DNA of 64,000 bases from Candidatus Levyibacteriota bacterium (lineage in GTDB: Bacteria; Patescibacteriota; Microgenomatia; Levybacterales; UBA12049), in NCBI GenBank assembly GCA_041906785.1, contig JAYRIM010000023.1:64019-128018 (forward strand). The letters run 5' to 3'. The translations under genes and the position numbers were made by a program. Position 1 is the stretch's first letter. Each line of letters begins with the position of its first letter. Of this stretch, positions 1 through 36,120 are shown piece after piece. A model generated the notes under the pieces. It searched no databases. It saw only the letters and a program-made list of their open reading frames with translations, and was not told the origin of the DNA.

Positions 1-153
1 TTCGTCTGCAAATCCTATACCACAATCGACAATAAGAATTTCATCTTTATACTCGTAGACATAAAGATTTCTGGTGACATCTTCAATACCGCCTAGGGGG
101 ATAATTGAAACACTTTCTTCGTGGGGAATATTTTGTTGTTTGTTCTGATCCAT
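1..153 (-). CDS. rnj: Ribonuclease J (metallo-beta-lactamase/beta-CASP RNase), N-terminal fragment running off window start
   Basis: Reverse complement from ATG at 153..151 reads MDQNKQQNIPHEESVSIIPLGGIEDVTRNLYVYEYKDEILIVDCGIGFADE, matching the RNase J N-terminus (..ALGGLGEIGKN.Y....DEI.LID.GIKFPED). Missing from the ORF track because it is short and partial. Confidence 0.65.
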   Translation of the reverse strand, partial: MDQNKQQNIPHEESVSIIPLGGIEDVTRNLYVYEYKDEILIVDCGIGFADE

Positions 154-241
154 TCGCAGCTTTATTTTACCTTTCTTATGGTTAATTGTCAAAAGGCTAT
201 CTTACATTGACAGAAAAATTTCCACATGCAATACTTTACCC

Positions 242-841
242 ATGTCTCCCCAACCTCTCAATACAGAGAAACAATTACCTTCACCTCATGATATGCAGCT
301 GCCAATGTCTCATTGGCAGTTATTACGTAAACCAACCTTCTCTGAAAAGTATAGATATTTTAGATGGCTTTTAATTTTATTACTTCTACCCCTCCTTTTT
401 TTTCTACCCGTACCGTATTATCAGAATAAAGTACAATGTCCTACAGATCCTGTCTCACCATGCCCAAAGGAAGGTTTTTACTTTGGGTTATCATTATGGG
501 AGCAAGTTATAATGACAAGACAAATTTCTCCAAACAATGAAATTTATATTTCACCTACAGCTATTCCACTATCTCCAAAATCAAGTTCCAATGAACTTAT
601 TGTCATCGATTTAGCTAAGAAAGATTTAGCTGCTAGATTAAAAATTAATACTGAAGAAATACAAATACAGTCTTATAAAGAAGTTAACTGGAATGATTCA
701 AGCCTAGGATGCGCAAAGCCTGGAATGAATTATTTGCAAGTTATTACACCTGGATATGAAATAATTCTTGAGGCTAATGACCAGGAGTATAGCTATCATA
801 CAAATACACAAACACGCGTAGTACTTTGCGATTTACAATAA
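242..841 (+). CDS. Hypothetical single-pass membrane protein (N-terminal TM WLLILLLLPLLFFLPVPYY, then Cys-containing extracytoplasmic region)
   Basis: 199-aa ORF with one strong hydrophobic segment. Convergent with the Lon-like gene and abuts its stop. No recognisable family. The opposite strand has stops in every frame, so this is not a Lon protease remnant. Confidence 0.4.
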   Translation: MSPQPLNTEKQLPSPHDMQLPMSHWQLLRKPTFSEKYRYFRWLLILLLLPLLFFLPVPYYQNKVQCPTDPVSPCPKEGFYFGLSLWEQVIMTRQISPNNEIYISPTAIPLSPKSSSNELIVIDLAKKDLAARLKINTEEIQIQSYKEVNWNDSSLGCAKPGMNYLQVITPGYEIILEANDQEYSYHTNTQTRVVLCDLQ

Positions 842-1978
842 TTACCAACTTGGAAGGAATTGTTTCACATTCTCTGCAGTGACACGAATAGGAGTAGAAG
901 CACCTTCGACAATTAATCTCGCAGCTTTACGACAAATACCAGATACTGTTCTTTCTAGGCTACGAATACCTGAATCATATCCTAATGGTCGGATGATTTG
1001 CATCCACAAATCCTCATCAATAGTAATATCGGTATCATTTAAGCCCATGTCGTCGCGAATACGTCTAAAAAGATAATTTTTTCCAATCGCCATTTTTTCT
1101 TCGTCAGTATATGAAGGCATTTGCAGTATTTGCATACGATCGAGAACAGCTGTTGAGACATTTGTGGTATTATTTCCTGTAGCAATAAATAGAACATTCG
1201 ACAGATCAAATGGATAGTCAATATAATGGTCTGTAAATGCTTTATTTTGTCCAGGATCTAAGAGTTCCAGTAATATACCCATAATATCCCCACGTGCGGC
1301 TTCTGTTACGCGATCAAGCTCATCAAGAAGAATAACAGGATTTCTGGTACCAGCATGAATGAGTTTTTTTATTACAGCACCTGGTTCTGCATCAGGAAAA
1401 GCTCGTGATTGTCCACGAATAACTCGCGAATCAGCCATTCCTCCGAACGGAATACGCTCAAATTGCCTACCAAGAGCTCTTGCAACGGAAATAGCTAATG
1501 TCGTTTTACCTGTACCAGCAAGTCCAACTAACATTAATACAGGCGCATGGCCAATAGATCTTCCTTTATTTCTTTGAAAGTTAAGAATAATTGTAGATAA
1601 ATATTCAAGAATCGCATTTTTAATATTTTCAATACCATAGTGATCCTCGTCGAGAACTTGTTTTGCTTTTTTGAGATCCAGAATATCTTGTGATTGTTTT
1701 TCCCAAGGCAAACTTGTTACCCAGTTAATATACGTCGAGGTACTTTCATATTCCGTAATATAGTTTGCGCTCATAAACCCTGATCCCTGTCGAATAAGCG
1801 CTAAACGAGCAACCCTATCAATAAGAATTTGTTTTATGTCTGCAGGCATTGGGGTTTGTTCAACTCTTTCGCCGAGTTTTCGTATCTGATCAGTAGAATT
1901 ATCAGTTAAACCTCCTTGTAATGGGGATGAAGCAGTAGTATCTTTTGGGGGAGATTGATCCATGGGTATATTATACAA
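842..1978 (-). CDS. Lon-family AAA+ ATPase module lacking both the N-terminal LON domain and the C-terminal serine protease domain
   Basis: LPWEKQSQDILDLKKAKQVLDEDHYGIENIKNAILEYL, then Walker A GLAGTGKTTLAISVARALGR, Walker B ILLDELDRV, and SGIRSLER (sensor-2). The ORF ends right after the AAA+ small domain (…ENVKQFLPSW*). No protease domain follows in any frame. Confidence 0.7.
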   Translation of the reverse strand: MYNIPMDQSPPKDTTASSPLQGGLTDNSTDQIRKLGERVEQTPMPADIKQILIDRVARLALIRQGSGFMSANYITEYESTSTYINWVTSLPWEKQSQDILDLKKAKQVLDEDHYGIENIKNAILEYLSTIILNFQRNKGRSIGHAPVLMLVGLAGTGKTTLAISVARALGRQFERIPFGGMADSRVIRGQSRAFPDAEPGAVIKKLIHAGTRNPVILLDELDRVTEAARGDIMGILLELLDPGQNKAFTDHYIDYPFDLSNVLFIATGNNTTNVSTAVLDRMQILQMPSYTDEEKMAIGKNYLFRRIRDDMGLNDTDITIDEDLWMQIIRPLGYDSGIRSLERTVSGICRKAARLIVEGASTPIRVTAENVKQFLPSW

Positions 1979-2123
1979 GAAGTATGAAAGGTATCAAATG
2001 TATCAAAAGTAAGGTGAAAGGGACAAATGAGACACAGGAGCCAAATGGGCCATAGGTTCTATCTATTTCTCTGATTTCCTTTGTCTCCTTTGACTCTTTG
2101 GTCCCTTCTGGTTCCTGATCTTT

Positions 2124-4490
2124 TCAATAGTGGGCTTTGCGGCCATATGATGGTTTTCGCTGCTGTGTTCTCTCACGCTGAAATTGTCTTGATAAAGGAT
2201 GTGCGCTGCGCATTCTATCATCTCGGTCAAATCCTCTTCTTTCACCACGATCAAAATTCTGTCGATCTCCTCTATCAAAACTTCTTCTTTCTCCTCGATC
2301 AAATCCTCTTCCTCGTCCTTGTGGTCGACTACTTCTTTCTGGGCGTTCTCTATTACCTGAATCTGACTCCCCAGAATCATCGAGTAACATAGTTAAATTA
2401 ATTCTTCCTTGGTCATCAATCTCAATAACTTTTACAGTCACTTTCTGACCTAAACTGACAACTTCTTCTGGATGGTTTACAAAACCTTTTGCCATTTTTG
2501 AAACATGAACCATGCCTTCTTTTCCTGGTAAGAATTCCACAAAAGCTCCAAAAGGCAAAATGCGTTTTACTTCACCTTCATATACCTCACCTGGTTTTAC
2601 TTCTTTTGTGATGCCTTGAACCATGTTTAAAGCACTCTGTACTGATTCTTCAGAAGTACCAGCAATAGTAACTGTACCATCATCTTCTACATCAACAGTT
2701 GCACCTGTCGTAGCGATAATATTTTTAATAATCTTTCCACCCGGACCGATCAGTTCACCAATCTTATCAACAGGAATTTGTAATAACTCTATCTTTGGTG
2801 CAAACTCAGAAACTTCATCACGTGATTGTGGAATAGCTTTTAACATTTTTTCAAGAATACTCATTCTTGCAACCCGAGCTCTTTCAAATATTTGTTCTAT
2901 CTGTTCAACTGTTAAACCTGGAATTTTGACATCAAGCTGTATAGCTGTTACACCTGTATCTGTTCCAGCCACTTTAAAGTCCATGTCACCTGAAAAATCT
3001 TCAAGACCGATGATATCTGTGAGCAATACATATTCTCCTTCTTTTGTGGATCCATGAGGATATGACATCATTCCTACAGAAATACCTGCAACTGGTTTCG
3101 TAATAGGTACTCCAGCATCCATTAATGCTAATGTCGAACCACATGTTGATGCCATTGATGTTGATCCGTTTGATGAAGTTACTTCAGAAACGAGGCGAAT
3201 TGTATAAGGGAATTTTTCTTTACTAGGTATAACGGCTTCGAGCGCACGTTCTGCAAGGGCACCATGCCCGATTTCACGTCGAGACGTAAAACCGACTCTC
3301 CCTGCTTCTCCTACAGAGTAAGGGGGCATTGAGTAATGATGGATATATCTTTTAGACTCTTCTCCTTCTGCTGACTCTATCAGCTGTTCCATTCTTGGGG
3401 ATCCGAGTGTAGCAATAGTAAGAACTTGTGTTAATCCTCTTTGAAATATCGCTGAGCCGTGTGTACGAGGGAGTACTCCTACCTGGATATCAATCTGACG
3501 AACTTCATCCATAGCACGACCATCAACTCTTTTATTCTTTTTAACAACATCAGAACGAATTCCTTGGAATAAGACATATTCCAATGCCTTTGCGATAATC
3601 TTAGAATCAATTTCACTTTCTGGGTTAGCCATTTTTTCCTGTTCATAAATTTTTTTGACTAGATCTTGTTCTTCTGTACCCCCGAACTCTTTATTTGCTT
3701 TCGCTTTTGCTAATGCCGTAACCTCATCTTTATATGCTTTTTCGATTCGCTTTGCCATTTCAGCCATCAGGGCATTTGGATAAACCTGTACCTTCTGTTG
3801 TCCAACTTTCCCAACCAAATCGATAATAAAATTCAAGACTTTGTCAGTTTCCTCATGTGCACGTTTAATCGCTTCAAGCATAATCTTTTCTGACACTTGT
3901 TTCGCGCCAGACTCAATCATGACTGTTTTTCCTTTTACCTGAGATACGACTAAATCTAAATCAGAATATGCCATTTCTGTGGCTGTAGGATTAATAATAT
4001 ATTGTCCTTCATCATTTTCACCACGAACATATCCTACGCGAACTGCTCCAATAGGGCCATTCCAAGGGATAGGAGATGTTGCTATTGCCGCTGACACTGC
4101 ATTTATTGCGAGGATATCTGGTGCATGTTCACCATCAACTGATAAAACAGTAACCATCACTTGTACTTCACGTTTAAATTCTTTTGGAAAAAGGGGTCTA
4201 ATTGAACGGTCTATTAAACGACCAATAAGGATAGCTTCGTCAGAAGGTCTGCCTTCACGTTTTACCCAACGACTTCCTTTTATACGCCCTCCAGCATACA
4301 AACGTTCGACATATTCAACTGAGAGAGGGAAATAATCGAGCTCTGTTTCTTTACCTAATACAACTGTAGCCAGAACCATGGTATCACCAATTCGTCCCAA
4401 TACAGAAGCTGTTGCTTGCGGTGCAAGCTTACCCGTTTCTAAGGTTAATGTTTTCCCTGCAAATTCTAACGTTTCTGAGGTCTTAGTCAT
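2124..4490 (-). CDS. pnp: Polynucleotide phosphorylase (PNPase) with an arginine-rich repetitive C-terminal tail
   Basis: Two RNase PH domains, KH and S1 domains across the full length. C-terminal ~80 aa is low complexity: GRGRGFDRGERRSFDRGDRQNFDRGERRGFDRDDR. Confidence 0.95.
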   Translation of the reverse strand: MTKTSETLEFAGKTLTLETGKLAPQATASVLGRIGDTMVLATVVLGKETELDYFPLSVEYVERLYAGGRIKGSRWVKREGRPSDEAILIGRLIDRSIRPLFPKEFKREVQVMVTVLSVDGEHAPDILAINAVSAAIATSPIPWNGPIGAVRVGYVRGENDEGQYIINPTATEMAYSDLDLVVSQVKGKTVMIESGAKQVSEKIMLEAIKRAHEETDKVLNFIIDLVGKVGQQKVQVYPNALMAEMAKRIEKAYKDEVTALAKAKANKEFGGTEEQDLVKKIYEQEKMANPESEIDSKIIAKALEYVLFQGIRSDVVKKNKRVDGRAMDEVRQIDIQVGVLPRTHGSAIFQRGLTQVLTIATLGSPRMEQLIESAEGEESKRYIHHYSMPPYSVGEAGRVGFTSRREIGHGALAERALEAVIPSKEKFPYTIRLVSEVTSSNGSTSMASTCGSTLALMDAGVPITKPVAGISVGMMSYPHGSTKEGEYVLLTDIIGLEDFSGDMDFKVAGTDTGVTAIQLDVKIPGLTVEQIEQIFERARVARMSILEKMLKAIPQSRDEVSEFAPKIELLQIPVDKIGELIGPGGKIIKNIIATTGATVDVEDDGTVTIAGTSEESVQSALNMVQGITKEVKPGEVYEGEVKRILPFGAFVEFLPGKEGMVHVSKMAKGFVNHPEEVVSLGQKVTVKVIEIDDQGRINLTMLLDDSGESDSGNRERPERSSRPQGRGRGFDRGERRSFDRGDRQNFDRGERRGFDRDDRMRSAHPLSRQFQRERTQQRKPSYGRKAHY

Positions 4491-4596: not shown

Positions 4597-4866
4597 TTAG
4601 TCTTTTAATCCAATTTTTTTTAATATTCCTGATGCTCGTTTATCGTCAACCTTCTTAAGAAAATTAACCAGTCTGCGTCTCTTCGCAATCATTGATAATA
4701 ATCCCCTTCTACTATGTGTATCATGTAAATGCTGCTTTAAATGCTCTGCAAGGCGATTTATTCTATGGGTCAATAATGCAATTTGAACTTCAGGACTTCC
4801 TGTATCTCCATCTACTGTCTGAAAATCTTTAATAATTTGTTGTTTTTGTGTTAGGCTCAATGGCAT
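4597..4866 (-). CDS. rpsO: 30S ribosomal protein S15
   Basis: 89 aa; LTHRINRLAEHLKQHLHDTHSRRGLLSMIAKRRRLVNFL is the canonical S15 signature. Sits immediately upstream of pnp, the classic rpsO-pnp arrangement. Confidence 0.95.
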   Translation of the reverse strand: MPLSLTQKQQIIKDFQTVDGDTGSPEVQIALLTHRINRLAEHLKQHLHDTHSRRGLLSMIAKRRRLVNFLKKVDDKRASGILKKIGLKD

Positions 4867-4931
4867 AGTCGTAATTATATCACAGAAAATCTGTTACCGG
4901 CAAGTAGGCAGACAGTTTAGCATATTTTTGC

Positions 4932-6065
4932 TTAAACGTTCGAAGATCCTTTATAGACTTTTGGCGTTAACCAATCAGTCGGAGGATTTATATCATCGAA
5001 ATTATTTTGCTGTTCCTGTGGTGGAAGAGTTACCTGCTGTAATTGTGGCTGTCTTTGCTGTACAGGCTGTTGTTGTGGTTGGGATTGCTGTTGATTTTGC
5101 TGAGCAGGTTGCTGCTGTTGGCGACGTTGATCAAACTGTGGTCTGCGATCCCTGTTATCATTTCTATCAGATTGACGTTGGTCGAATTGTCTTCTATCAC
5201 GATTATCTCGTTGCTGCTGAGACTGCTGTTGAGGTTGCTGTTGAACCACTGGGCGTTGTTGTTGAAAATTTCCTTGAGGTTGCGTCTGCGGTTGAGGTTG
5301 TCGCATTTGTTGTGTAGTTGTAGGCACTTGCTGAGTTCGTGAACGGACAGCTCCTTGTCTCATAAGAATACCTGCCATTTCAAAAGCTATGGGAGTTGTT
5401 CGTGGACTTTGGAAATTTTCTGTTCCATATGAAATACCATCAATAAGATTCTGAGCGATATCAACATCAAGTGGAGCTTTCAAGTCATTTAATACTTGAA
5501 CAATCTGTTCACTTACAGACGATGCTCGTGGATTTACAATAACAATATCGCCAAATCCTTGATTTTCTTGTTTATTATCGATGTTAACAAGTGTAACATT
5601 CTTTAACGCGTCAGGGCTAAATGCTGAATGAATATCTGCTAACCGTGGAGTACCAACCACAAAGAGTAAATCTAACTCACCATTTCCTCGGGTATAACGC
5701 ACATCTTGTTCACTGAATGTAAGGCCTTGGTCTCCAGCTTTAACGACAATATTCAGATACCCATTTTCGATCGTATATGATACTTTCTCGATGTCACCCT
5801 CACGATAGGGGAACGATACCACCAGATCAGCTCCTCCACCTTCATAACGAGTTTTTACTTTATCAACACCCACGAGGTTAGAGACTTCGACAATAGGTTC
5901 AGTAGCGGAAAGTACTGCAGTATTTTTACCCATAGCTTGGAGGGAGAGATAGAGAGAAAGAGCAGCAGCCATTTCATCAATTGAGGGCTCTTTACCCACT
6001 GCTACGGCTACTGATTTACTACGTTGTAGCGCTTCTTTTAGGCGCTGAAGTGTCGCATTGTCCAT
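4932..6065 (-). CDS. NrnA-like DHH/DHHA1-fold protein with degenerate catalytic motifs and a Gln/Pro/Arg-rich C-terminal tail
   Basis: Aligns to B. subtilis NrnA (LLFVVGTPRLADI ~ LVIVCDTANQERI; PRASSVSEQIVQVL ~ TSASSVSEMIYELY). DHH motif is IDNKQEN instead of IDHHPNE. The N-terminal DxD motif reads SID. No GGGH motif. Tail: QQQRDNRDRRQFDQRQSDRNDNRDRRPQFDQRRQQQQ… Occupies the infB/rpsO position where nrnA, rbfA and truB are often found. Confidence 0.6.
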   Translation of the reverse strand: MDNATLQRLKEALQRSKSVAVAVGKEPSIDEMAAALSLYLSLQAMGKNTAVLSATEPIVEVSNLVGVDKVKTRYEGGGADLVVSFPYREGDIEKVSYTIENGYLNIVVKAGDQGLTFSEQDVRYTRGNGELDLLFVVGTPRLADIHSAFSPDALKNVTLVNIDNKQENQGFGDIVIVNPRASSVSEQIVQVLNDLKAPLDVDIAQNLIDGISYGTENFQSPRTTPIAFEMAGILMRQGAVRSRTQQVPTTTQQMRQPQPQTQPQGNFQQQRPVVQQQPQQQSQQQRDNRDRRQFDQRQSDRNDNRDRRPQFDQRRQQQQPAQQNQQQSQPQQQPVQQRQPQLQQVTLPPQEQQNNFDDINPPTDWLTPKVYKGSSNV

Positions 6066-8939: not shown

Positions 8940-9614
8940 CTATTTTTCCTTTTTAAATAACTTATATTGTTGAAGAAGAAGAAAAAGAGCTGGCAATAAC
9001 AGAAGATAGAGAAAACCTACCGAACTACTGTGTTTAACTATATATTTATATGTAACATCACTAAAATAATAGAGAGCGATATTTGGCAGCTCAGAAAGTG
9101 CTGTCGCAAAGAAAAATATTCTAAAATTAATCTTACTTAGCCCTGCGATATAACTAATGAAATCCATAATAGGCGCTGTTGTCAAACGAATTCCCAAAAA
9201 TGCTAGAAATTCTTTTTTCCTTGAAACCTTTTCTTCCCAGGCATGTAATTGTTGGAGAGGTACAAAACGTGAAACTAATGGTTTTCGATATACTCGAGCA
9301 ATCCAAAAAGCTATCGATGCACCGATAATAATTCCTAAAAATGCGAATATATAAGACCACAACCATCCATAAATAGGAATTAATAAAAATGATAATATAC
9401 CCCCTGGAATGGGAGGAATAACTACTGCGAGGATACGCCAAATAATTACAATGATGGGAGCGAGAATAACGTGCGCAATTGCAAAAGCCACGATTTGTTC
9501 TTGATTTGCAGGAAACCAAAAAAGAAAAAAAATAATAAGCAAAGAAGTTATGAGAAAAGATATATTAATAAGTCCTCGGGATTTCATAGTAGTATTATCG
9601 GAGAACAAAGGCAT
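8940..9614 (-). CDS. DedA/TVP38/TMEM64-family membrane protein
   Basis: Multi-TM protein with the VIPPIPGG motif characteristic of the DedA/SNARE-associated family. Start overlaps the stop of the upstream ClpB-like gene (TAATG). Confidence 0.65.
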   Translation of the reverse strand: MPLFSDNTTMKSRGLINISFLITSLLIIFFLFWFPANQEQIVAFAIAHVILAPIIVIIWRILAVVIPPIPGGILSFLLIPIYGWLWSYIFAFLGIIIGASIAFWIARVYRKPLVSRFVPLQQLHAWEEKVSRKKEFLAFLGIRLTTAPIMDFISYIAGLSKINFRIFFFATALSELPNIALYYFSDVTYKYIVKHSSSVGFLYLLLLPALFLLLQQYKLFKKEK

Positions 9615-12187
9615 TATTGTACAGCAACTATAATAGTATTCCCTTCATCAGTCGTCATCGTAAGGGTATTACCACGTTGTATCTCATCACGAAGTTTTTT
9701 CTGTGCAATAATATCCTCAACAGTGTCCTGAATATATCGTCGTAAAGGACGAGCACCGAACTGTTGATTAAAGCCTTCTTTCATAACTTTATTAAGAAGT
9801 CTATCATCGTACGAAAATGTTATATCCTGTTCGGCCAATCGCTTTTTAATACCATCTAACATAATTCGTGCTATGGAGCCCATTTCTGCTTCTCCTAAAG
9901 GCTTAAAGATAATAACATCGTCAAATCTATTCAATAATTCAGGTCTAAATAAACCCTTTTTCTGCAATTCATCAAGTAATCTATTCGAAAATTCATCTGT
10001 GACAGCAGAACCCTTTTCAATCTCCTCACGAATAAATTCTGCTCCCGCGTTTGATGTAGCAATAACAATACTGCTCGCAAAACTTACTGTTCGCCCTTTA
10101 TTATCTGTCAATCGTCCATCTTCAAGTACTTGCAAGAATAAATCAAGAATTTTAGGATGCGCTTTTTCAAATTCGTCAAGAAGTACTAAAGAAAATGGAT
10201 GATCTGCAATTTTATCTGTTAGTTCACCCCGCTCTTGTCCTTCACCAGGAGGAGCCCCAAGTAGTCTTTTTTCTCCTTCTATATCTGAATATTCACTCAT
10301 ATCAAGACGTATCATTTTATCTTCTCCACCGAAATAAAGTTCTGCTAACGCTTTCGCTGTTTCTGTTTTACCTACGCCTGTTGGGCCAAGGAAGAGGAAT
10401 GAGATAGGCCGTTTCATTGTGGTCATCCCCGCACGTAATCTTCGCATCGCTTCTGCTATAGCACGAATAGCATCCTCCTGTGCAATAACTCGCTTGTGCA
10501 TCAATTCTTCAAGGTGTAGCAGTATATCTTTTTCTTTCGCCGTGGGTTGGGATATAACAATGTGCGTTTTTTCTTGTATTGCGGTAACAATATCATCACC
10601 TCCAACAAATACTGTTTTCGTCTTACTAAACAAACCGCCAGCACCATGACTACGTGATGCAACAGTGTGGGAAACATCTTCTAAAACATTTACAGCACTT
10701 CCAGGTAATGCAGCTTCCTGGAAAAATCTATCGGCGTAATCTACTGCATTTTCAATTGCTTTGTAAGTCAACACAACTCTATTTTTTTCTTCAACTGCCG
10801 ATGCCCTTTCGAGAACCATTTTCATAGCTGTATGTTTATCTGGCTCTTCTAACTTAATAACAGTAAATGCTTCGAGCAATGAACTTTTTTCAATAAATGT
10901 TTTAAAATTACCTACCGTGACTGTCCCAATAACAGGCGTTTTTCCGGAAGTTAGATAAGGATATAGTGCACCAGATAAATCAATTTCGTAGGATGACGAT
11001 CCTGTAATGTTCTGTAATTCAGGAATGTATATCACTACATTTCCTGAGTGACTAACTTCTTCAATGATGGCTTGTAAACGACTTTCTAATTCTGCACGAT
11101 TTGCAGCGCCTGCGATGAGAGGACCTACCATAAGCTCAAGAACCTTAATATGAGGAACGCTTAATGATGTACTGTGAAGAAAGCTTTCTGTTGCCAATAA
11201 AGATACAAGATTTTCTCTACCACTACCTGGATCACCAACTAAGAGTATACTATTATTTTCTCGTTTAGAAAGAGTCTCAAGCATCTGTATAAATTCTTTT
11301 TCCCTACCAGTAATTTCTGGTTTCTTTTCAAATGCTTCATAAGAAAAATTTACAGTATATTTTTTCGTCTCATATGTCCATCCAGTTGTGAGTCCTTCAC
11401 CAATTCCACTACCATACATATGAACACGGCGTTTTTTCGGTTTTTCCTCATAAGGATACATATGTCTTGCCCAAGAAAGAATTTGCATAAGTTCTTCTTG
11501 TTTCAGTTGATGATTGAAAAGCAATTTGGTTTGTTGTTCTGTTAAAAAAAGATACGATCCGAATATATCAATTGAAGTTATATATGTTCCGCGAACACTT
11601 TTCGCTAGTTCGGCTGCATAGGTTATAACCTGTGTTAATGGAATATCTAGCAGCTGTATCGATTGCTTTTCAACTGGAATTTTATTCATTATGAATTGGA
11701 CTTGTTCATAATCCAGTAAGGAATATACAACTTGTTTTGTATTCTGATATACCAAAATTTTTTCTAATGCCTCTCGAGTCATCGATTCATACCAATTTTG
11801 ATCTTTATTATTTACTACTGAAATAACGGGTAAAACCTTTGCTATTTTATGCCTAAAGAAAAGCTCGATCTGTAAAGTAACAGAAAGGAAAAAAAGTGGA
11901 AGTTTTATATTTCCATGTTCACGAAATGTATTAAAAAACCAAACAGAAATGAAAAAAAGAACAACGACTCGTAATGTTCTCATAAGCGCTGTCTTATAAA
12001 AGTGATAAATCTTTGTATACGCCACCATATTTAAAAATGTATAAAAAGCTGAACGATAGTTACAACAGGCCAGGCCAGAAATAAAAGGAGAAATGCAATT
12101 TGAAATATTAGGATAACTGATAATAAAAGGAAACTGATAAGGATAAGTAATGTTTTTATACCTATTCCCATTCCTATTGAAAACCAA
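9614..12187 (-). CDS. Membrane-anchored ClpB/ClpC-like double-AAA+ protein with a degenerate first Walker A and no M-domain
   Basis: N-terminus from MRTLRVVVLFFISVWFF (probable start near 11983) has about 2 TM helices. NBD1 Walker A reads GDPGSGRE instead of GxxGxGKT. NBD2 is intact: GPTGVGKTETAKALAE, LVLLDEFEKAHP, sensor RPELLNRFDDVIIF. No IGF/LGF ClpP loop. Confidence 0.75.
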   Translation of the reverse strand: MVFNRNGNRYKNITYPYQFPFIISYPNISNCISPFISGLACCNYRSAFYTFLNMVAYTKIYHFYKTALMRTLRVVVLFFISVWFFNTFREHGNIKLPLFFLSVTLQIELFFRHKIAKVLPVISVVNNKDQNWYESMTREALEKILVYQNTKQVVYSLLDYEQVQFIMNKIPVEKQSIQLLDIPLTQVITYAAELAKSVRGTYITSIDIFGSYLFLTEQQTKLLFNHQLKQEELMQILSWARHMYPYEEKPKKRRVHMYGSGIGEGLTTGWTYETKKYTVNFSYEAFEKKPEITGREKEFIQMLETLSKRENNSILLVGDPGSGRENLVSLLATESFLHSTSLSVPHIKVLELMVGPLIAGAANRAELESRLQAIIEEVSHSGNVVIYIPELQNITGSSSYEIDLSGALYPYLTSGKTPVIGTVTVGNFKTFIEKSSLLEAFTVIKLEEPDKHTAMKMVLERASAVEEKNRVVLTYKAIENAVDYADRFFQEAALPGSAVNVLEDVSHTVASRSHGAGGLFSKTKTVFVGGDDIVTAIQEKTHIVISQPTAKEKDILLHLEELMHKRVIAQEDAIRAIAEAMRRLRAGMTTMKRPISFLFLGPTGVGKTETAKALAELYFGGEDKMIRLDMSEYSDIEGEKRLLGAPPGEGQERGELTDKIADHPFSLVLLDEFEKAHPKILDLFLQVLEDGRLTDNKGRTVSFASSIVIATSNAGAEFIREEIEKGSAVTDEFSNRLLDELQKKGLFRPELLNRFDDVIIFKPLGEAEMGSIARIMLDGIKKRLAEQDITFSYDDRLLNKVMKEGFNQQFGARPLRRYIQDTVEDIIAQKKLRDEIQRGNTLTMTTDEGNTIIVAVQ

Positions 12188-12996: not shown

Positions 12997-13321
12997 GGCT
13001 ATTTAGAAAAGAAGAAATAATGGAAAGAAGGACACTAAATAATAAAGCCCACCAAAAAGAGTTTACTCGAAATCCTTCAATAAGAAGGTCTGTAAGAGAA
13101 ATCATTAATGCATTGAGAACAAGCGCAAAAACACCCAATGTAACCAATGTTATGGGGAGTGTTAGGAAAAACAGAATTGGCTTAATTGAGGCGTTAATAA
13201 TGCCTAATACCAATGCAACAATTAAAGCAGTTACAAACGAATCAACATACACTCCTGGTAATAAATATGCCGCAACGAAAACAGCCATTCCACTTATAAA
13301 CCAGTTAATTAATATTTTCAT
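12983..13321 (-). CDS. DUF360 / phage-holin-4-superfamily small membrane protein
   Basis: 112 aa, about 3-4 TM, with GMAVFVAAYLLPGVYVDSFVTALIVALVLGIINASIKPIL matching the DUF360 (YvlD/YqxA-like) pattern. Its ATG overlaps the ClpC-NBD2 stop as ATGA. Confidence 0.6.
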   Translation of the reverse strand: MKILINWFISGMAVFVAAYLLPGVYVDSFVTALIVALVLGIINASIKPILFFLTLPITLVTLGVFALVLNALMISLTDLLIEGFRVNSFWWALLFSVLLSIISSFLNSLAKD

Positions 13322-14979
13322 GATGATTCATGTAATCCATCTACACCTGAAGCATTTATTTCCCCATTTTCTAGTACAGAAACATGAGCTTGTTCGTTCG
13401 CATAGTTTTGTGAGCCTAGACCTACTGTAGCACTTGTTCCTCCTGCCACATATGCTCCACCTGAAGCATAGTTTGGCGGCGGAGTACCTTGAATGAATTG
13501 ATTTGTAAATGATTGATTAGTTTGCACAGATGGCTCATCAGACGGATTTATAGAAGGTGTTGCTGTTGGGTGAGTCGAATCTGGAGACAAAACACTTAAA
13601 GGATCAAAAGATGTCGCTACTGTAGGCGCTGATTGGCCCGTCGAAGGAACTGTCTGCTGTCCATAAACATAAGGTTGCTGTGATAACTGTGGCGTTTGAG
13701 TACTAGAAACTTGAGGTTGAGTATGCTGATCAGGTTGGTCTGTTGTTGGCTGAACCGTGGGGTTGTTTGTCTCCAAAGTAGCTTGAGCTGGCTGTTTTCC
13801 ACCTTCAGGTTTTTTAAACAAGAATTGGTTTGTTCTCGTGTCGTAATCTATCACAATAGTATCTCCTTGAACAAATTGTTTCCCGATGATTTGCAGCGCT
13901 ATTGGATTTTCTATAGATGTCTGGATTAACCTGCGCAACGGACGAGCACCGTACATTGGGTCATAACCTTCTTGTGCAAGCTTATTTAATGCTCTATCGG
14001 TTACTTTTACTGCAAATCCTTGTTCTTTTAATAATTTTGCAGTTTTTTCAAGACCTCGTTTCGCAATACCTACCATATCAGATCTCTGCAGTGGTTTAAA
14101 AATAACAATATCATCATAACGATTAAGTAATTCTGGCCGGAAAAATTTCCGTAGTTCAGTATTAACGACTGTTGATAGTTCAGCAAAATCTTTTTCATAT
14201 TGTTCTTTTGATTTTTCTTTTTTCGCATCTTGTTCACCTAATTTTTCAGTGATCATACCACTACCTATATTAGATGTACAAATGACTATAGTGTTTTTAA
14301 AGGATATCGTATTTCCTTTATTATCAGTTAAACGTCCGTCTTCTAAAAGCTGTAACAGAATATTAAAAACATCAGGATGTGCTTTTTCAACTTCATCAAG
14401 AAGGACTATTGAATATGGTTTCGCTCGAACTGCTTCGGTTAATTGTCCACCTTCTTCATATCCTACATACCCAGGAGGAGCGCCTATTAACTTAGCCACT
14501 TCATGTTTTTCCATATACTCTGACATATCTAAACGAACCATTGCATCATCACGTCCGAATAAAATTTCAGCAAGAGTTTTTGCTAATTCTGTCTTTCCTG
14601 TTCCGGAAGGTCCTAAAAATATAAAAGAGGCAATAGGTCTCTGTCCGCTTGCTAAACCAATTCTGCCACGGCGTACTGCTTCTGCAACTTTAACCACTGC
14701 TTCTTCCTGATCAACAAGTCGAAGATGGATTCTATCTTCAAGTTGCAAGAGTTTTGCGCTTTCATCCTCTGTCAACTTAGAAATTGGTATCCCTGTCCAA
14801 CTACTTACCACATTTTCAACATCACGCTTTGTAACAGCCATGCTATTTTCAACAGGTTCTGGTGTAGTTTGCTTACTCGGTGTAGGTGTACCAGGAGCAG
14901 CAGAAACTGGCTGGACTTCTGTCGCTTGTTGTTTTTCTTCTTTTACATTTACTGTATTTTGGGTATTTTTATCGTTCAT
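13318..14979 (-). CDS. clpC: ClpC/ClpA-type chaperone, C-terminal half (NBD2/D2 AAA+ module) as a separate ORF with a Gln/Thr/Pro-rich C-terminal tail
   Basis: Begins MNDKNTQ…VTKRDVENVVSSWTGIPISKL (canonical D2 start). Walker A GPSGTGKTELAKTLAE, Walker B IVLLDEVEKAHPDVFNILLQLLEDGRLTD, sensor-2 RPELLNRYDDIVIFKPL. No [LIV]G[FL] ClpP-docking loop. Long PTVQPTTDQPDQHTQPQVSSTQTPQ tail. Confidence 0.85.
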   Translation of the reverse strand: MNDKNTQNTVNVKEEKQQATEVQPVSAAPGTPTPSKQTTPEPVENSMAVTKRDVENVVSSWTGIPISKLTEDESAKLLQLEDRIHLRLVDQEEAVVKVAEAVRRGRIGLASGQRPIASFIFLGPSGTGKTELAKTLAEILFGRDDAMVRLDMSEYMEKHEVAKLIGAPPGYVGYEEGGQLTEAVRAKPYSIVLLDEVEKAHPDVFNILLQLLEDGRLTDNKGNTISFKNTIVICTSNIGSGMITEKLGEQDAKKEKSKEQYEKDFAELSTVVNTELRKFFRPELLNRYDDIVIFKPLQRSDMVGIAKRGLEKTAKLLKEQGFAVKVTDRALNKLAQEGYDPMYGARPLRRLIQTSIENPIALQIIGKQFVQGDTIVIDYDTRTNQFLFKKPEGGKQPAQATLETNNPTVQPTTDQPDQHTQPQVSSTQTPQLSQQPYVYGQQTVPSTGQSAPTVATSFDPLSVLSPDSTHPTATPSINPSDEPSVQTNQSFTNQFIQGTPPPNYASGGAYVAGGTSATVGLGSQNYANEQAHVSVLENGEINASGVDGLHESS

Positions 14980-14981
14980 AT

Positions 14982-16628
14982 TTATACAGTTGGTGGTGGC
15001 GCAAAATCAGCAACTGTTGGCGCGCCATATCCTTGGATAGCACCTACTGGTCCATTTCCAATTTGTTCTTGCGCACTTGGTTCTGAGACACTCATCGGCG
15101 CACCTGGAGCAATTGACTCTTGCTCTGCCACCTCTTCTTTTGGTTTCTCTGTTTCTGTTTCTTTTTTATCAGAGCCAGGCTCAGTTTTAATTACTTCTAC
15201 TAATTCCTGCTGTGAATCTGTTTTATTTGAACCGATACGAGGAAGATGCGTTTCAGAACGGCCAAGTTTCACCCATGCAGCTGCTTCATCAAGTAAATCA
15301 ACAGCTTTATCAGGAAGATATCGCTCACCAATATATTTCTTAGATAATTTCACTGCTGCTTCAATTGTTGCATCGCTGATCGTAACACCATGGAACCGCT
15401 CATATTTAGACTTTAACACTTTTAACATCTCCATTGCTGCTTCTTCACTTGGCTCTTCAGCAAGCACAGGCTGGAATCGTCGCTCTAAGGCTTTATCTTT
15501 CTCAAAATTTTTTCTATATTCCATAGTAGTTGTCGCACCAATAATTTGCAATTGGCCACGAGCCAAATGAGGTTTAATTATATTTGACGCATTCATCGAA
15601 TCTCCACCGTCTCCCCCCGCACCCATAAGAATATGAATTTCATCAATAAAAAGAATAACTTGTCCAGCAGCAGCCATCGCTTCCTGGATGACAGTTCGTA
15701 ACCGTTCTTCAAATTCTCCACGATGACTCGCACCCGCAACAATAGATGATAAATCTAACTGAATAATCCGTTTATTAAGTAATTCTTTCGGTGCACTTCC
15801 AGCGACTATCGCTTGCGCTAATCCTTCTATAATGGCAGTTTTTCCTACACCTGCTTCTCCGATAATAATCGGGTTGTTTTTTGTTCTTCTGAGTAGGATA
15901 TGAACAAGTCTGTCAATCTCTTTATCTCTTCCGGCAATTGGATCTAGTTTACCTTCACGAGCTTGCTGGGTTAAATCAATACCAAACCGATCTAATACTG
16001 ACTTTTTCCCATATGCAGACCCATGGGTTTTGGCTAATTTATCCTGAACCTGTTCTTTCTGCATACCTTGTGTCTGTAATAAATTTGAAGTAGGTAACGT
16101 GTCTGAATATAAAGCTAATAATACATCCTCAGGTGTTATAAATGCGGATTCGCGGGATTTCGCATCTCGATACGCTTGTTCGAACACTTGTCTCGACTTA
16201 TCACTGAGGGTGGGCTGTCCCATAAATGATCCTGGTTGTTCTTTACTTTGAATTTCTCTGGTGACTTTTGCTGGATCAACAGAAAAATCTTCAAGTAATT
16301 TAAAAATATCTTCATCATAGAGTAAACCTATGAGAATCTGTTCAGGCTCAATAAAAGGTTGTCTAATTCTTTTCGTTTCCTCCTGTGCGTGTTGAAGAAC
16401 CTGTGTTGCTCGTTGATCTAAATGAGAAAGCGCTGACAAGTTTTGACGAAATGAAGCATTCATTTTAGAACCACCCATCTCTATCTGAGGATTCTGGGGT
16501 GGGGTATTGATGCCTCCACTACCGGACGATTGCATACCTGGCTGCTGTTGAGGGACACCTGCAGCCTGCGATTGCTGCATTGGTGGTGTTTCCTGTTTTT
16601 TAGATTGACTAAATAAATTACCAAACAT
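14982..16628 (-). CDS. clpC: ClpC/ClpA-type chaperone, N-terminal half (Q-rich extension + Clp-N repeats + NBD1/D1 AAA+ module) as a separate ORF
   Basis: Clp N-domain repeats, Walker [17 protein letters not shown], Walker [10 protein letters not shown], then [14 protein letters not shown]. It then runs into a disordered E/K/T/P-rich tail instead of an M-domain. Stop TAA at 14984..14982 is followed 2 nt later by the ATG of the NBD2 ORF (TAATATG). Confidence 0.85.
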
Positions 16629-31933: not shown

Positions 31934-33120
31934 AAGATTTCTACTCATATCTACATACTCAATTAGCAGATAAAACCGTTCCTACAGTCGAATCAGGCCA
32001 AGGAGCTTATTTAACAATTAATGGCAAGAAAAAGCTGAATCTTTGCTCAAATAATTATCTTGGATTTGCTGCAGATGAAAGATTAAAAAAAGCTGCTATA
32101 AAAGCAATCGAACAATATGGGGTAGGTACAGGTTCTGTACGTGCTTTATCAGGAACAAATACGCTACATATACAACTTGAGGATGCACTTGCGAAGTTCA
32201 AATATGCAGAAGGATGTATCGTTCTCACAGGAGGGTATATGGCAAATCTTGCAGCAATTCAAACGCTTATTGGGAAAGAAGATATAGTTATTTCGGATGA
32301 GTTAAATCATGCTTCTATTATTGACGCCATTCGGTTATCTGCAGTGAAAAACAAATTTATCTATAAACATGCCGATATGACCGACTTGGAGAGCAAACTG
32401 CAGGAAGCAAATAAAGTAGCACAGAATCCGAAATCAGATGGTCAACAGCCACTCATGTTACTTGTTACGGACGGTGTTTTTTCGATGGATGGTGATCTCG
32501 CACCATTACCACAAATTGTGACTTTAGCGAAACAATATAATGCAGTTACTATGGTTGACGATGCTCATGGTGAAGGTGTTCTTGGTACTCATGGACGTGG
32601 TATTGTTGATCATTTTAACCTTCACGGACAAATAGATATTGAAGTGGGAACATTATCGAAAGCATTTGGCGTCATGGGAGGATTTATTACTGGGAAAAAA
32701 GACCTTATTACATTTTACCGGCAAAAAGCTCGACAGTTTCTTTTCTCGAATGGATTATCTATTCCTGATACAGCCGCACTATTAGAGTCAGTTACTATTC
32801 TTGCAGAGTCTGACGAAGAAGTTAAAAAATTATGGAATAATGCGAAGTATATAAAAGAAAATCTTATTGCAGCGGGTTTTGATTGTGGAAAGTCAGAGAC
32901 GCCAATAACACCTGTTATGTTAGGTAACGAGGATACTGCCAAAAACTTTAGTGCAAAATTACTTGAACATGATGTATTCGCGACACCTATTGTATTTCCA
33001 ATGGTTCCAAAAGGGAAAGCCCGTATTCGTGTTATGCCTTCATCATCTCACGAGTTGAAGGATTTAGATTTCGGAATATCTATATTTAAAAAAGTTGCAC
33101 AGGATATGCAGATACTTTAG
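31930..33120 (+). CDS. kbl: 2-amino-3-ketobutyrate CoA ligase (glycine C-acetyltransferase)
   Basis: Full-length PLP-dependent aminotransferase class-II fold: [11 protein letters not shown]…[17 protein letters not shown]…[11 protein letters not shown]…VDDAHGEG…TLSKAF. ATG at 31930 overlaps the tdh stop (ATGA). The track ORF starts further upstream at 31906. Confidence 0.85.
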
Positions 33121-33151
33121 CCTCAATTTCTGCTATAATAAACCTCATCGT

Positions 33152-34330
33152 ATGGCTAGAAAAAGAATATCAGAATTCCGTGCAAAGACACTTCTCTATC
33201 AAGAACTTGGTGTCCCATATACAGGTATACAAGTCACCAATAAAAATCTTCCATTATTTCTCAATTCTCAATTCTCAACTCTCAATTCCGATCAGTATGT
33301 TGTAAAAGTAGATCAAGGTGTAAAAGGTCGATTTAAAAAAGGTCTCGTGTTACTCAACCAAACAGCTGAACAATTACCAAGAGCCTTAGAACAATTAAAA
33401 CAAAAAGGTTACTCTCAATTCCTCATCGAAGAAATGACCTCTCATGAACCATCAGACGAGAAATATCTTTCTATTGAAAGAGTGAGAGAAGGATATAAAA
33501 TTTTCTATTCTAAAACAGGTGGAGTGAATATCGAAGAATCTGGACATGTCAAACAAATAATTATTCCTTATTCAGAAGATTACTCAATGCAGACCGAAGA
33601 AATCGATTCAAATTTCCTACGCCAATTATTAAAAACCTTTGATACATACTATTTCTCATTCCTCGAAATTAATCCATACATAATACTTGATACAAAATAC
33701 TTACTACTTGACGCAGCTGTTGAAGTAGATAGCACAGCTGCTTTTTTCGTAAATAATGCATGGACTGAAAAGGATTTTACGGATGGGAGTATTAGGGAAA
33801 AAACTCCTGAAGAAAAGAATGTACAAAAACTAGCAGAAAACAGCCAAGCAGCATTCTCTCTCGAAGTTTTAAATCCAAATGGAAGTATTTTCATGATGTT
33901 ATCAGGAGGTGGCGCGAGTATCGTTCTTGCCGATGAGGTTTATAACGAAGGATACGGAAAAGAACTTGCAAACTATGGCGAATACAGTGGTAACCCAAAC
34001 GCAGAAGAAACATATATCTATGCAAAAAATCTTTTATCTCTTCTTCTACGATCAATTGCCAAAAAGAAGGTATTAATTATCGCAGGTGGTGTAGCGAATT
34101 TCACTGACGTCAGAATAACGTTTAAAGGTTTGATTAAAGCTCTAGATGAAGTCAAAACTCAGCTTCAGACACAAAATATACAGGTATTTGTCAGACGAGG
34201 AGGCCCTTATCAAGAAGAAGGTTTGCAACTTATGAAGCAGTTTCTTGAACAAAACCATTTATTAGGAGTAATAGCAGGACCTGAAATGGTATTAACTGAT
34301 ATTATTACGAAAGCAACTCAATCATTATGA
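33152..34330 (+). CDS. aclB: ATP-citrate lyase small (beta) subunit-like ATP-grasp protein
   Basis: Aligns with the N-terminal part of eukaryotic ACLY / Chlorobium AclB: KRISEFRAKTLLY, FLEINPY, LNPNGSIFMMLSGGGASIVLADE…ELANYGEYSGNPNAEETYIYAKNLLSLL, IIAGGVANFTDV…FKGLIKAL, VFVRRGGPYQEEGLQLM. ATG at 33152; the track ORF starts at an upstream TTG (33095). Confidence 0.75.
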   Translation: MARKRISEFRAKTLLYQELGVPYTGIQVTNKNLPLFLNSQFSTLNSDQYVVKVDQGVKGRFKKGLVLLNQTAEQLPRALEQLKQKGYSQFLIEEMTSHEPSDEKYLSIERVREGYKIFYSKTGGVNIEESGHVKQIIIPYSEDYSMQTEEIDSNFLRQLLKTFDTYYFSFLEINPYIILDTKYLLLDAAVEVDSTAAFFVNNAWTEKDFTDGSIREKTPEEKNVQKLAENSQAAFSLEVLNPNGSIFMMLSGGGASIVLADEVYNEGYGKELANYGEYSGNPNAEETYIYAKNLLSLLLRSIAKKKVLIIAGGVANFTDVRITFKGLIKALDEVKTQLQTQNIQVFVRRGGPYQEEGLQLMKQFLEQNHLLGVIAGPEMVLTDIITKATQSL

Positions 34331-36120
34331 TCGATATCGAATTATTACGAAATACGAAACATAAGATAATCTGTATTGGTTCGCATAAGCCGATCATTCA
34401 ATCAATGTTCGATTTTGATTTCCTCTCCGGAAAAACAGAACCAAGTATTATATGTATTATCGCTTCAGGAAGACGATTTGAACGCTATTTCTTTGGAAAA
34501 GAAGAAGTTCTTATTCCGGTATATGACTCTATAGAAAAAATTCCAGCCAGTATCAAAAAAAGTCTCACATTGTTTTTTAATACAACATCTGCTCGTCGGG
34601 CGAAGCAGAGTAGTATCGATATTCTAGAATCAATGCCCAATCTTCTTGGAGGAACTATTTTTGCAGAGGATGTTCCTGAGAAACACGCTTTAGAGTTAAC
34701 TCAATTTGTGAGTAAAAAAAAGCAATGGATTGTCGGACCAGCTAGTGTTGGTTTTATTATCCCTGAGTCTTTTAAAATTGGGGCAATAGGAGGAACTGAC
34801 TATAGACAGCTCGTCGCTTCAAATGTGTTAACTTCAGGAAATGTCGCTATTCTTTCTGCTTCTGGAGGCATGGTAAATGAAATAATTCGTATCTCAGGAC
34901 AAAATGAAAAAGCAATCTCCTTTTCATTATCGTTCGGTGGAGATCGATTTCCTATTCTTTCTCCGAAAGAAGCATTTCTGGCTGCGGAGAAAGATGCTCA
35001 GACCGAACATATCCTTTATTACGGAGAATTAGGAGGAAATGATGAATATGATATTATCGATTTAGTAACCTCAAAAAAGCTTACAAAACCTATTATCTGT
35101 TATATAGCAGGCACTGTTTCAGACCTTTTTGAAACCCCCCCACAATTCGGCCATGCGAAAGCAATGGCAAAATCCCAAGGTGAAAGCGCGAAAGAGAAAC
35201 GGGAAGCGATGAGAAATGCAGGAATAACAGTTGCTGAGACATTCGGCCAATTTGTGGGATATGTTAAACAAATACCATCGAAAAACTTGGTAGAAAAAGA
35301 TAAGTATAGTACAATGATGCAAACTATGACTGACAGAAAATCAGCTCTCATAACCTCAACGATTTCTTCCGATCGAGAAGGTGATGCTACTATTCTGGGA
35401 GAAAATCTGCTCTCTTTCGCAGAAACACGTACTTTCGCTGGAATAGTAAGTTCCCTATTTCTAGGCAAAAAAGATGTTTCGAAAGATTTAGAGACATTTA
35501 TAGATTTCGTACTTCGGTTATTAGTGGACCATGGGCCATATGTTTCAGGAGCTCTCAATACTATTGTTACCGCAAGGGCAGGAAAAGACCTCGTCTCATC
35601 TCTCTCTGCTGGTTTACTTACAATTGGCCCGCGTTTTGGCGGTGCTATCAATCAAGCTGCTATGAATTGGTTACAAGGTGTGATCGAACAAAAAAATGCA
35701 TACAATTTCGTAGAAGAATTCGCAAGTCAGAAGATATATATCTCTGGCATTGGACATCGTAAATATCGTATAGATTTTCCAGATCCACGAGTTACTGCTC
35801 TTTTAGAACATGCAAAACATCTTGAAAAAAAACGATTTACATATTTTGCCTTAGAGGTCCAAAAGATTACTACATCAAAAAAAGGTAATCTTATTTTGAA
35901 TGTTGATGGTGCAATCGCTGCAATACTTCTAGATATCCTTTCTGAAAAAGAAGGTATGTCAGATCACGAATTAAAACAACTCACTGAAACAGAATTTTTC
36001 AATTCTTTATTCGTACTTTCAAGATCCGTCGGCTTTATCGCCCATTATCTCGACCAGAAACGACTCGATGAAGGCTTATTACGATTACCAGATGAGTTAG
36101 TAAGTACAAGCGAAATATAA
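34327..36120 (+). CDS. aclA: ATP-citrate lyase large (alpha) subunit-like protein (CoA-binding/succinyl-CoA-synthetase-alpha-like + citryl-CoA-lyase domains)
   Basis: Phosphohistidine loop [32 protein letters not shown] (ACLY: [30 protein letters not shown]). Citrate-synthase-like C-terminus [47 protein letters not shown] (ACLY: [44 protein letters not shown]). Start overlaps the aclB stop (ATGA). Confidence 0.75.
   Translation: [597 protein letters not shown]

Follow-up and report, generated by a model that had tools for sequence, protein, structure and literature searches.

The window, a 64,000-nucleotide stretch of a Candidatus Levyibacteriota genome, encodes a real and conserved derivative of LonA that lacks both the N-terminal domain and the protease domain and that, judging from its residues, retains an intact ATPase site. 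Lon is the textbook example of a protein in which a protease and its AAA+ motor form a single chain. We refer to the protease-less protein as LonAAA and hold, with moderate confidence, that it is a functional, clade-specific descendant of LonA, which would act as a Lon-like ring that remodels substrates at the expense of ATP and does not degrade them. The placement of the gene between pnp and rnj, its own leaderless-type promoter and the existence of a clade-wide family go beyond the sequence-only reading in which the gene was first described.

Domain architecture and family

The open reading frame called mechanically in the window, 842..1978 (-), opens at a TTG codon (1978). This codon is probably not used, and the ATG at 1963 is probably the true start, because the 373-residue product that begins there is identical to a database protein (P0001) and the family consensus starts with 'MD...'. 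The coding sequence and the regions flanking the ATPase core are as follows.

842..1963 (-), LonAAA coding sequence, 373 aa from the ATG; TAA stop at 842..844
1898..1963 (-), N-terminal tail, residues 1-22, low-complexity and predicted to be disordered (pLDDT <50 for residues 1-19)
1571..1897 (-), pre-AAA helical bundle, residues 23-131, equivalent to E. coli Lon ~246-345
899..1048 (-), Lon-type lid (small alpha) domain, residues 306-355, Pfam Lon_lid, with sensor 2 R334 in DSGIRSLER

Pfam searches of the protein detected the AAA (4e-17) and Lon_lid (4e-11) domains only. The S16 domain (Pfam Lon_C, PF05362) is absent from the C-terminus in these searches; the N-terminal LON substrate-binding domain likewise has no Pfam match, and the alignment with E. 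coli Lon begins at residue ~246. Compared with the NCBIfam lon model TIGR00763, LonAAA covers positions 247-569 of 795 and scores 329 bits, well under the curated equivalog cut-off of 608 bits, and does not reach the score expected of a LonA equivalog. The best match among solved structures is B. subtilis LonA (3m6a, E = 2e-75), and the alignment ends at the residue just ahead of the 3m6a protease domain. Further solved-structure matches, all of them LonA proteins, are from Meiothermus, Thermus, Yersinia, E. coli and human (LONP1), and here too the aligned region stops just ahead of the protease domain.

Alignment of the fetched E. coli lon gene with the family revealed that LonAAA corresponds to E. 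coli Lon residues ~246-585, which comprise a three-helix bundle and a complete AAA+ module and end in the linker before the P domain. The AF2 monomer model of LonAAA (mean pLDDT 80) superposes on Lon AAA+ modules, the best being the E. coli fragment 6n2i (TM-scores 0.80 and 0.88). Pfam, the solved-structure matches and the fold match agree on a Lon-type AAA+ module with a Lon lid. The sequence-only reading had described a pre-AAA helical region and a complete Lon-type AAA+ module, the lack of both a LON N-domain and a protease domain, and an ORF that ends right after the AAA+ small domain; these features are all borne out by the Pfam, TIGR00763, 3m6a and E. coli comparisons. The N-terminal tail is very variable in length across the family and reaches ~320 residues, rich in Q, in P0126.

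A first protein search returned 120 clusters, 357-451 aa long and 61-88% identical, all of which feature AAA and Lon_lid and nothing else; the named members are Levybacteria and other Patescibacteria. When short, more distant members served as seeds for profile searches, two further subfamilies with the same architecture emerged, one in Dojkabacteria and one in other lineages of Microgenomates, among them Gottesman-, Shapiro- and Roizmanbacteria. The three sets (120, 118 and 104 database clusters) bring the homologues with this architecture to more than 340, ranging in length from 347 to 632 aa and distributed in the Microgenomates group and Dojkabacteria. A scan of species-representative genomes, one genome per species, identified 250 relatives, the best 80 of which belong to Levy-, Gottesman-, Ames- and Beckwithbacteria. 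The records of many relatives are titled 'uncultured Gammaproteobacteria', which is a submitter's placeholder.

The loci of these species-representative genomes yielded an ortholog set of 88 distinct full-length sequences of 347-512 aa (median 368). In the 57 loci carrying all neighbours, the median identity to the window protein is 59% for LonAAA, 63% for PNPase, 55% for IF2, and 76% for both NusA and S15. By sequence identity, LonAAA is conserved at the level of a housekeeping protein, about as PNPase and IF2 are.

A literature search that included the Microgenomates genome paper PMC7143001 found no description of a protease-less Lon. LonAAA is annotated as endopeptidase La by JGI and as 'AAA family ATPase' by NCBI. 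The first name is unsuitable, because three of the four LonA features tested (N domain, protease domain and equivalog score) fail; the second is correct but uninformative.

ATPase site and pore loops

The motifs of the AAA+ core are listed below, along with the corresponding E. coli residues and their occurrence in the 88 orthologues.

1499..1525 (-), Walker A GLAGTGKTT, residues 147-155; K153 corresponds to E. coli K362, Lys in 88/88
1379..1417 (-), pore loop 1 RGQSRAFPDAEPG, residues 183-195; F189 corresponds to E. coli Y398, with D-A-E in place of G-S-M
within 1286..1333 (-), Walker B ILLDELDR; D214/E215 correspond to E. coli D423/E424, Asp-Glu in 88/88
within 1286..1333 (-), after Walker B, pore loop 2 VTEAARGD; A223 replaces the hydrophobic M/F/W of Lon
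1136..1174 (-), sensor 1 N264 through Arg finger R276; these correspond to E. coli N473 and R484, both in 88/88
within the lid at 899..1048 (-), sensor 2 R334 in SGIRSLER, which corresponds to E. coli R542, Arg in 88/88

All key ATPase residues of HCLR-clade AAA+ proteins (Walker A Lys, Walker B Asp-Glu, sensor 1, Arg finger and sensor 2) are invariant in the ortholog set, and the ATPase site is intact; as far as conserved residues indicate, the AAA+ module is catalytically competent.

The sequence of pore loop 1 is R-G-Q-S-R-A-F-P-D-A-E-P-G in the window and R-G-H-R-R-T-Y-I-G-S-M-P-G in E. coli, and the pattern of the family is [F/Y/H/R]-P-D-A-E, in contrast to the Y-I-G-S-M of Lon. Asp is found at the E. 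coli G400 position in 84 of the 88 orthologues and Glu at the M402 position in 87, and D-A-E is near-invariant in all three subfamilies. In 96% of the window's subfamily, F or Y is retained at the aromatic position, which is F189, followed by P190, in the window protein. The same position is occupied by R or H in ~74% of the second Microgenomates subfamily; an aromatic is kept in ~22% of the P0139-type subfamily and in ~55% of Dojkabacteria, many of which have E or N. The hydrophobic residue of pore loop 2, which is M in E. coli, F in B. subtilis and W in Meiothermus, is replaced by Ala in 71 of the 88 orthologues. These patterns indicate a substrate pore that is remodelled but conserved.

The aromatic residue of pore loop 1 is essential for translocation in Lon. 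Because it is lost in the sister subfamilies, classical threading may not be the mechanism common to the whole family. LonAAA had been called 'unfoldase-like' from its sequence, a description that is half supported: the ATPase site is intact, but the loops that grip the polypeptide in Lon are altered (F-P-D-A-E, and Ala in pore loop 2).

The state of the pore loops bears on a rather unlikely alternative, in which LonAAA would pull nothing through its pore and would serve as a nucleotide-dependent switch or as a regulator that binds nucleic acids or proteins. The presence of R, H, E or N in place of the aromatic in large parts of the wider family, the prevalence of Ala in pore loop 2 and the retention of an invariant ATP site are what such a non-threading ATPase might display. 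However, the R-G-x-S-R-x-x-x-D-A-E-P-G loop is among the most conserved stretches of the family, which argues for contact with something, and the aromatic is kept almost throughout the window's own subfamily. DNA binding by E. coli Lon involves a basic patch, which we take to be R306/K308/K310/K311, and the residues at these positions in LonAAA are Q, Q, I and L, which also speaks against the alternative.

Search for a protease domain and comparison with known systems

Stop codons had been noted in every minus-strand frame of the region in which a protease domain would lie, and the count agrees: the three minus-strand frames of 1..960 contain 14, 20 and 31 stop codons. Lon_C (Pfam) was not found in these frames at E <= 10, and tblastn searches with three Lon_C domains returned nothing in the window or in related loci. 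A custom Lon_C HMM, built from 75 full-length Lons and E. coli Lon, scored control proteins at 142-288 bits; when it was run on six-frame translations of the window together with 92 related loci, 1.56 Mb in all, its best hit had an E value of 0.49. S16 motifs, the finding that could have overturned the sequence-only reading, were detected by none of the three approaches in any frame downstream of LonAAA, in the 64-kb window, or at up to 10 kb from the 92 related loci. The closest full-length Lons, sought as a source of protease-domain queries, are from Binataceae, Clostridiales and Chloroflexota, and none of them is from Patescibacteria. In the loci examined, which represent all three subfamilies, LonAAA has no conserved neighbour with a peptidase domain.

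The main rival to a protease-free motor is a split Lon, in which LonAAA would be the ATPase subunit and an S16 or other peptidase, encoded elsewhere, would dock under the ring in the manner of ClpP with ClpX or HslV with HslU. We consider this arrangement improbable. LonAAA does end exactly at the AAA+/protease linker, many members share a conserved C-terminal FLPxW/Y end that might be a docking tail, and in one distant member a Peptidase_M23 gene follows 5 bp downstream, with two M16 genes in the vicinity. Against these points stand the lack of Lon_C in the window and around the 92 loci, the lack of any conserved peptidase-domain neighbour, and pore loops that have diverged from those of proteolytic Lon. 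Moreover, only around half of the orthologues have the C-terminal aromatic; the others end, for instance, in FLPT, QFIS or FTSEV, and a docking motif of the HbYX kind was rejected as a general feature. The view that LonAAA is a pseudogene, a truncated Lon or an artefact of joining two contigs draws on the unusual architecture only and is refuted by the family data, because 88 distinct orthologues and over 340 clusters share these boundaries, none of the catalytic residues varies, conservation is at the housekeeping level, and the downstream frames are filled with stops and hold no S16 remnant. The earlier claim that this is not a frameshifted Lon is upheld, and it is not a misassembled one either.

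LonA (endopeptidase La, MEROPS S16), which includes E. coli Lon, B. subtilis LonA and human LONP1, has the helical bundle and the whole AAA+ module with the Lon-specific lid in common with LonAAA. The two are 40-50% identical over ~340 residues, adopt the same fold and share all ATPase motifs. In contrast, the LON N-domain and the S16 protease domain are present in LonA and missing in LonAAA. The pore loops differ (Y-I-G-S-M and M/F/W in LonA, F-P-D-A-E and Ala in LonAAA), as do the Walker A sequences (GPPGVGKTS and GLAGTGKTT, respectively), and the LonAAA bundle carries a family-specific 8-residue insertion relative to LonA (GFMSANYI in the window protein). The gene neighbours are clpX and hupB for lon but pnp and rnj for LonAAA. 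The E. coli Lon AAA+ fragment 6n2i has nearly the same boundaries and fold as LonAAA; however, 6n2i is an engineered laboratory truncation of the protease, whereas LonAAA is a natural, conserved gene product.

ClpX and HslU are unfoldases of the HCLR clade, the same AAA+ clade as Lon, and are encoded apart from their peptidase. Like LonAAA, each is a single AAA+ module with a gene of its own, but ClpX and HslU have peptidase-docking elements and usually an adjacent partner gene, and no partner gene was seen within 10 kb of LonAAA in the 92 loci. LonAAA is closest to the LonA motor in sequence and fold and to ClpX/HslU in gene organisation, without a partner gene nearby.

Tandem-AAA Lons, such as P0122, resemble LonAAA in that some of their Lon-type AAA+ modules have no protease domain directly attached. 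Unlike LonAAA, however, these proteins terminate in an S16 domain, and their modules are 29-40% identical to LonAAA, less similar to it than canonical LonA is. In P0122 (Candidatus Dependentiae, 1113 aa), P0123 (1675 aa) and P0124 (1075 aa), one S16 domain is preceded by a tandem array of two or three Lon-type AAA+ modules, all with a Lon lid, an organization that resembles a double-ring Lon architecture. LonB proteins carry a membrane-anchoring insertion inside the AAA+ module, LonC proteins have a degenerate ATPase, and both keep the protease domain. Membership of LonAAA in either group was rejected, as it aligns contiguously with LonA without an insertion, has intact ATPase motifs and features no protease domain.

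Two further AAA+ proteins that had been pointed out in the window, a split ClpC and a degenerate ClpB-like protein, were recovered as described.

14982..16628 (-), N half of ClpC, with Clp_N, D1 and AAA_lid_9
13318..14979 (-), C half of ClpC, with D2 and ClpB_D2-small
9614..12187 (-), ClpB-like protein of 857 aa with a hydrophobic N-terminal region; the D1 Walker A reads GDPGSGRE, and the second AAA+ module looks intact

The [LIV]-G-F tripeptide that mediates ClpP docking was not seen, by eye, in the D2 half of ClpC. This half ends in a 170-aa tail rich in Q, P and T.

Elsewhere in the window, the gene at 39861..42182 (+) encodes a lysyl-tRNA synthetase of class I that carries a fused B3_4 domain, known from the PheRS beta subunit, at its C-terminus. 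Two adjacent genes at 33095..36120 (+) together resemble ATP-citrate lyase or citryl-CoA synthetase/lyase, and the second of them (34327..36120) matches the CoA-ligase and Citrate_synt C-terminal domains. Such a citrate-lyase-like gene pair is unexpected in a metabolically sparse Patescibacteria genome.

Gene order, transcription and proposed function

On the minus strand of the window, nusA, infB, a DHH-like gene, rpsO, pnp, LonAAA and rnj follow one another in this order. The elements next to LonAAA are the following.

4597..4866 (-), rpsO (ribosomal protein S15), head of the rpsO-pnp unit
2124..4490 (-), pnp (PNPase), conserved upstream neighbour, with an Arg-rich C-terminal tail
1970..1997 (-), promoter-like site TTGATA-16-TATAAT, 11/12 matches; the -10 box ends 6 nt before the ATG
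242..841 (+), 199-aa ORF between LonAAA and rnj, with one hydrophobic segment
1..153 (-), 5' end of rnj (RNase J), conserved downstream neighbour, which runs off the window

The conserved block has the form rpsO-pnp-LonAAA-(0-2.5 kb)-rnj. Of 86 loci, 75 have pnp upstream of LonAAA on the same strand and 79 have rnj downstream of it; the exceptions are mostly short contigs. In the second subfamily and in Dojkabacteria, pnp is directly upstream (gaps of 3-55 nt), and rnj lies 0-2.5 kb downstream, sometimes after UDG or NUDIX genes. The tight pnp-LonAAA-rnj arrangement is lost in two distant members. An ftsK gene (FtsK) is also conserved near LonAAA, and insertions between the genes of the block are tolerated. 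The pnp-LonAAA-rnj synteny may be an inherited gene order rather than the mark of a functional link.

The median distance from the LonAAA stop to the start of rnj is 22 nt, and 25 loci have gaps of <=8 nt. Such short gaps leave no room for a promoter, so LonAAA and RNase J would form one operon in many lineages. In the window, the two genes are separated by a 690-nt insertion with the plus-strand ORF 242..841, which the sequence-only reading had taken for a plausible membrane-protein gene. The ORF exists and has a single hydrophobic segment; it matches no family and has no homologue at the same place in relatives. The insertion is lineage-specific, and the ORF in it is a putative gene. An ORF of 168 aa occupies the same spot, on the opposite strand, in locus L001, while most relatives have nothing there; it is unrelated to 242..841 and was rejected as a homologue.

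The gene located between infB and rpsO, at 4932..6065 (-), has no Pfam match in the window copy; its positional counterpart in locus L087 matches DHH. The product of the window copy ends in a 130-aa tail rich in Q, R and D, in which RRxFDQR repeats resemble the PNPase tail.

No Shine-Dalgarno sequence precedes the LonAAA ATG in the window, and we infer from the position of the -10 box that the LonAAA mRNA is leaderless there. Hexamers resembling a -10 box (at least 5/6 matches, ending 4-9 nt before the start codon) are found at the LonAAA start in 57-61 of the 88 orthologues (65-69%). The corresponding values are 41% for rpsO, 34% for nusA, 32% for rnj, 16% for pnp and 7% for infB. LonAAA would thus usually head a leaderless transcript of its own. 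Throughout the window, a -10-like box is found at the start of 10 of 57 genes and an SD-like sequence at 7 of 57, a pattern which suggests that leaderless mRNAs are widespread in this lineage. The 10 boxed genes are mostly operon heads, and include LonAAA, rpsO, the DHH-like gene and tsaD, among others (e.g., boxes at 1970..1975, 4874..4879 and ~6075).

According to the reading that we favour, a LonA ancestor would have lost its S16 protease domain together with the substrate-binding domain at the N-terminus, and kept the three-helix bundle and the AAA+ module. LonAAA, modelled as a monomer by AF2, would assemble into a Lon-like ring and use ATP hydrolysis to grip and remodel substrates, with no degradation of its own. 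To our knowledge, isolated Lon AAA+ fragments are not readily hexameric without the protease domain, which counts against a ring. The re-tuned pore, with the acidic D-A-E and no hydrophobic residue in pore loop 2, would fit a different class of substrates rather than general hydrophobic degrons; given the acidity of the pore, these clients would probably be basic. They may belong to the RNA-decay machinery, because LonAAA lies in a conserved block with pnp and rnj, and mostly has a leaderless-type promoter of its own.

A more specific version of this idea is speculative, and we give it a low probability. LonAAA would be the ATP-dependent component of an RNA-decay assembly of Patescibacteria, in which its acidic-pore ring would grip Arg-rich disordered segments and thereby help PNPase and RNase J. 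The targets to be stripped or remodelled would be the conserved tail of PNPase or basic RNA-binding proteins, and LonAAA would fill the place that a DEAD-box helicase has in other degradosomes. PNPase ends in a disordered tail of ~90 aa, rich in Arg, Gly, Asp and Phe, both in the window (2124..2400 (-)) and in loci L001-L086. The tail contains a single short conserved motif, HPL[S/A]xQ[F/L]xRE(R), of which 59 of 93 loci have exactly one copy, in PNPase and in no other protein; the tails often end in RKAHY or KKRFSR. The motif is absent from PNPases of the Gottesmanbacteria type, the tails of which are short. As a hypothesis, the PNPase tail is a candidate ligand of LonAAA.

A whole clade retains the Lon motor alone, which points to a protease-independent job of this motor that is worth keeping in very small genomes. 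LonAAA can be regarded as a natural experiment on the 'chaperone' activity of Lon in isolation. Its fixed position between the genes for PNPase and RNase J offers a concrete and testable connection of an AAA+ machine with RNA decay in largely uncultured organisms. The interest of the family would rise sharply if the RNA-decay link, or a general loss of compartmentalised proteases in the clade, proved to be true.
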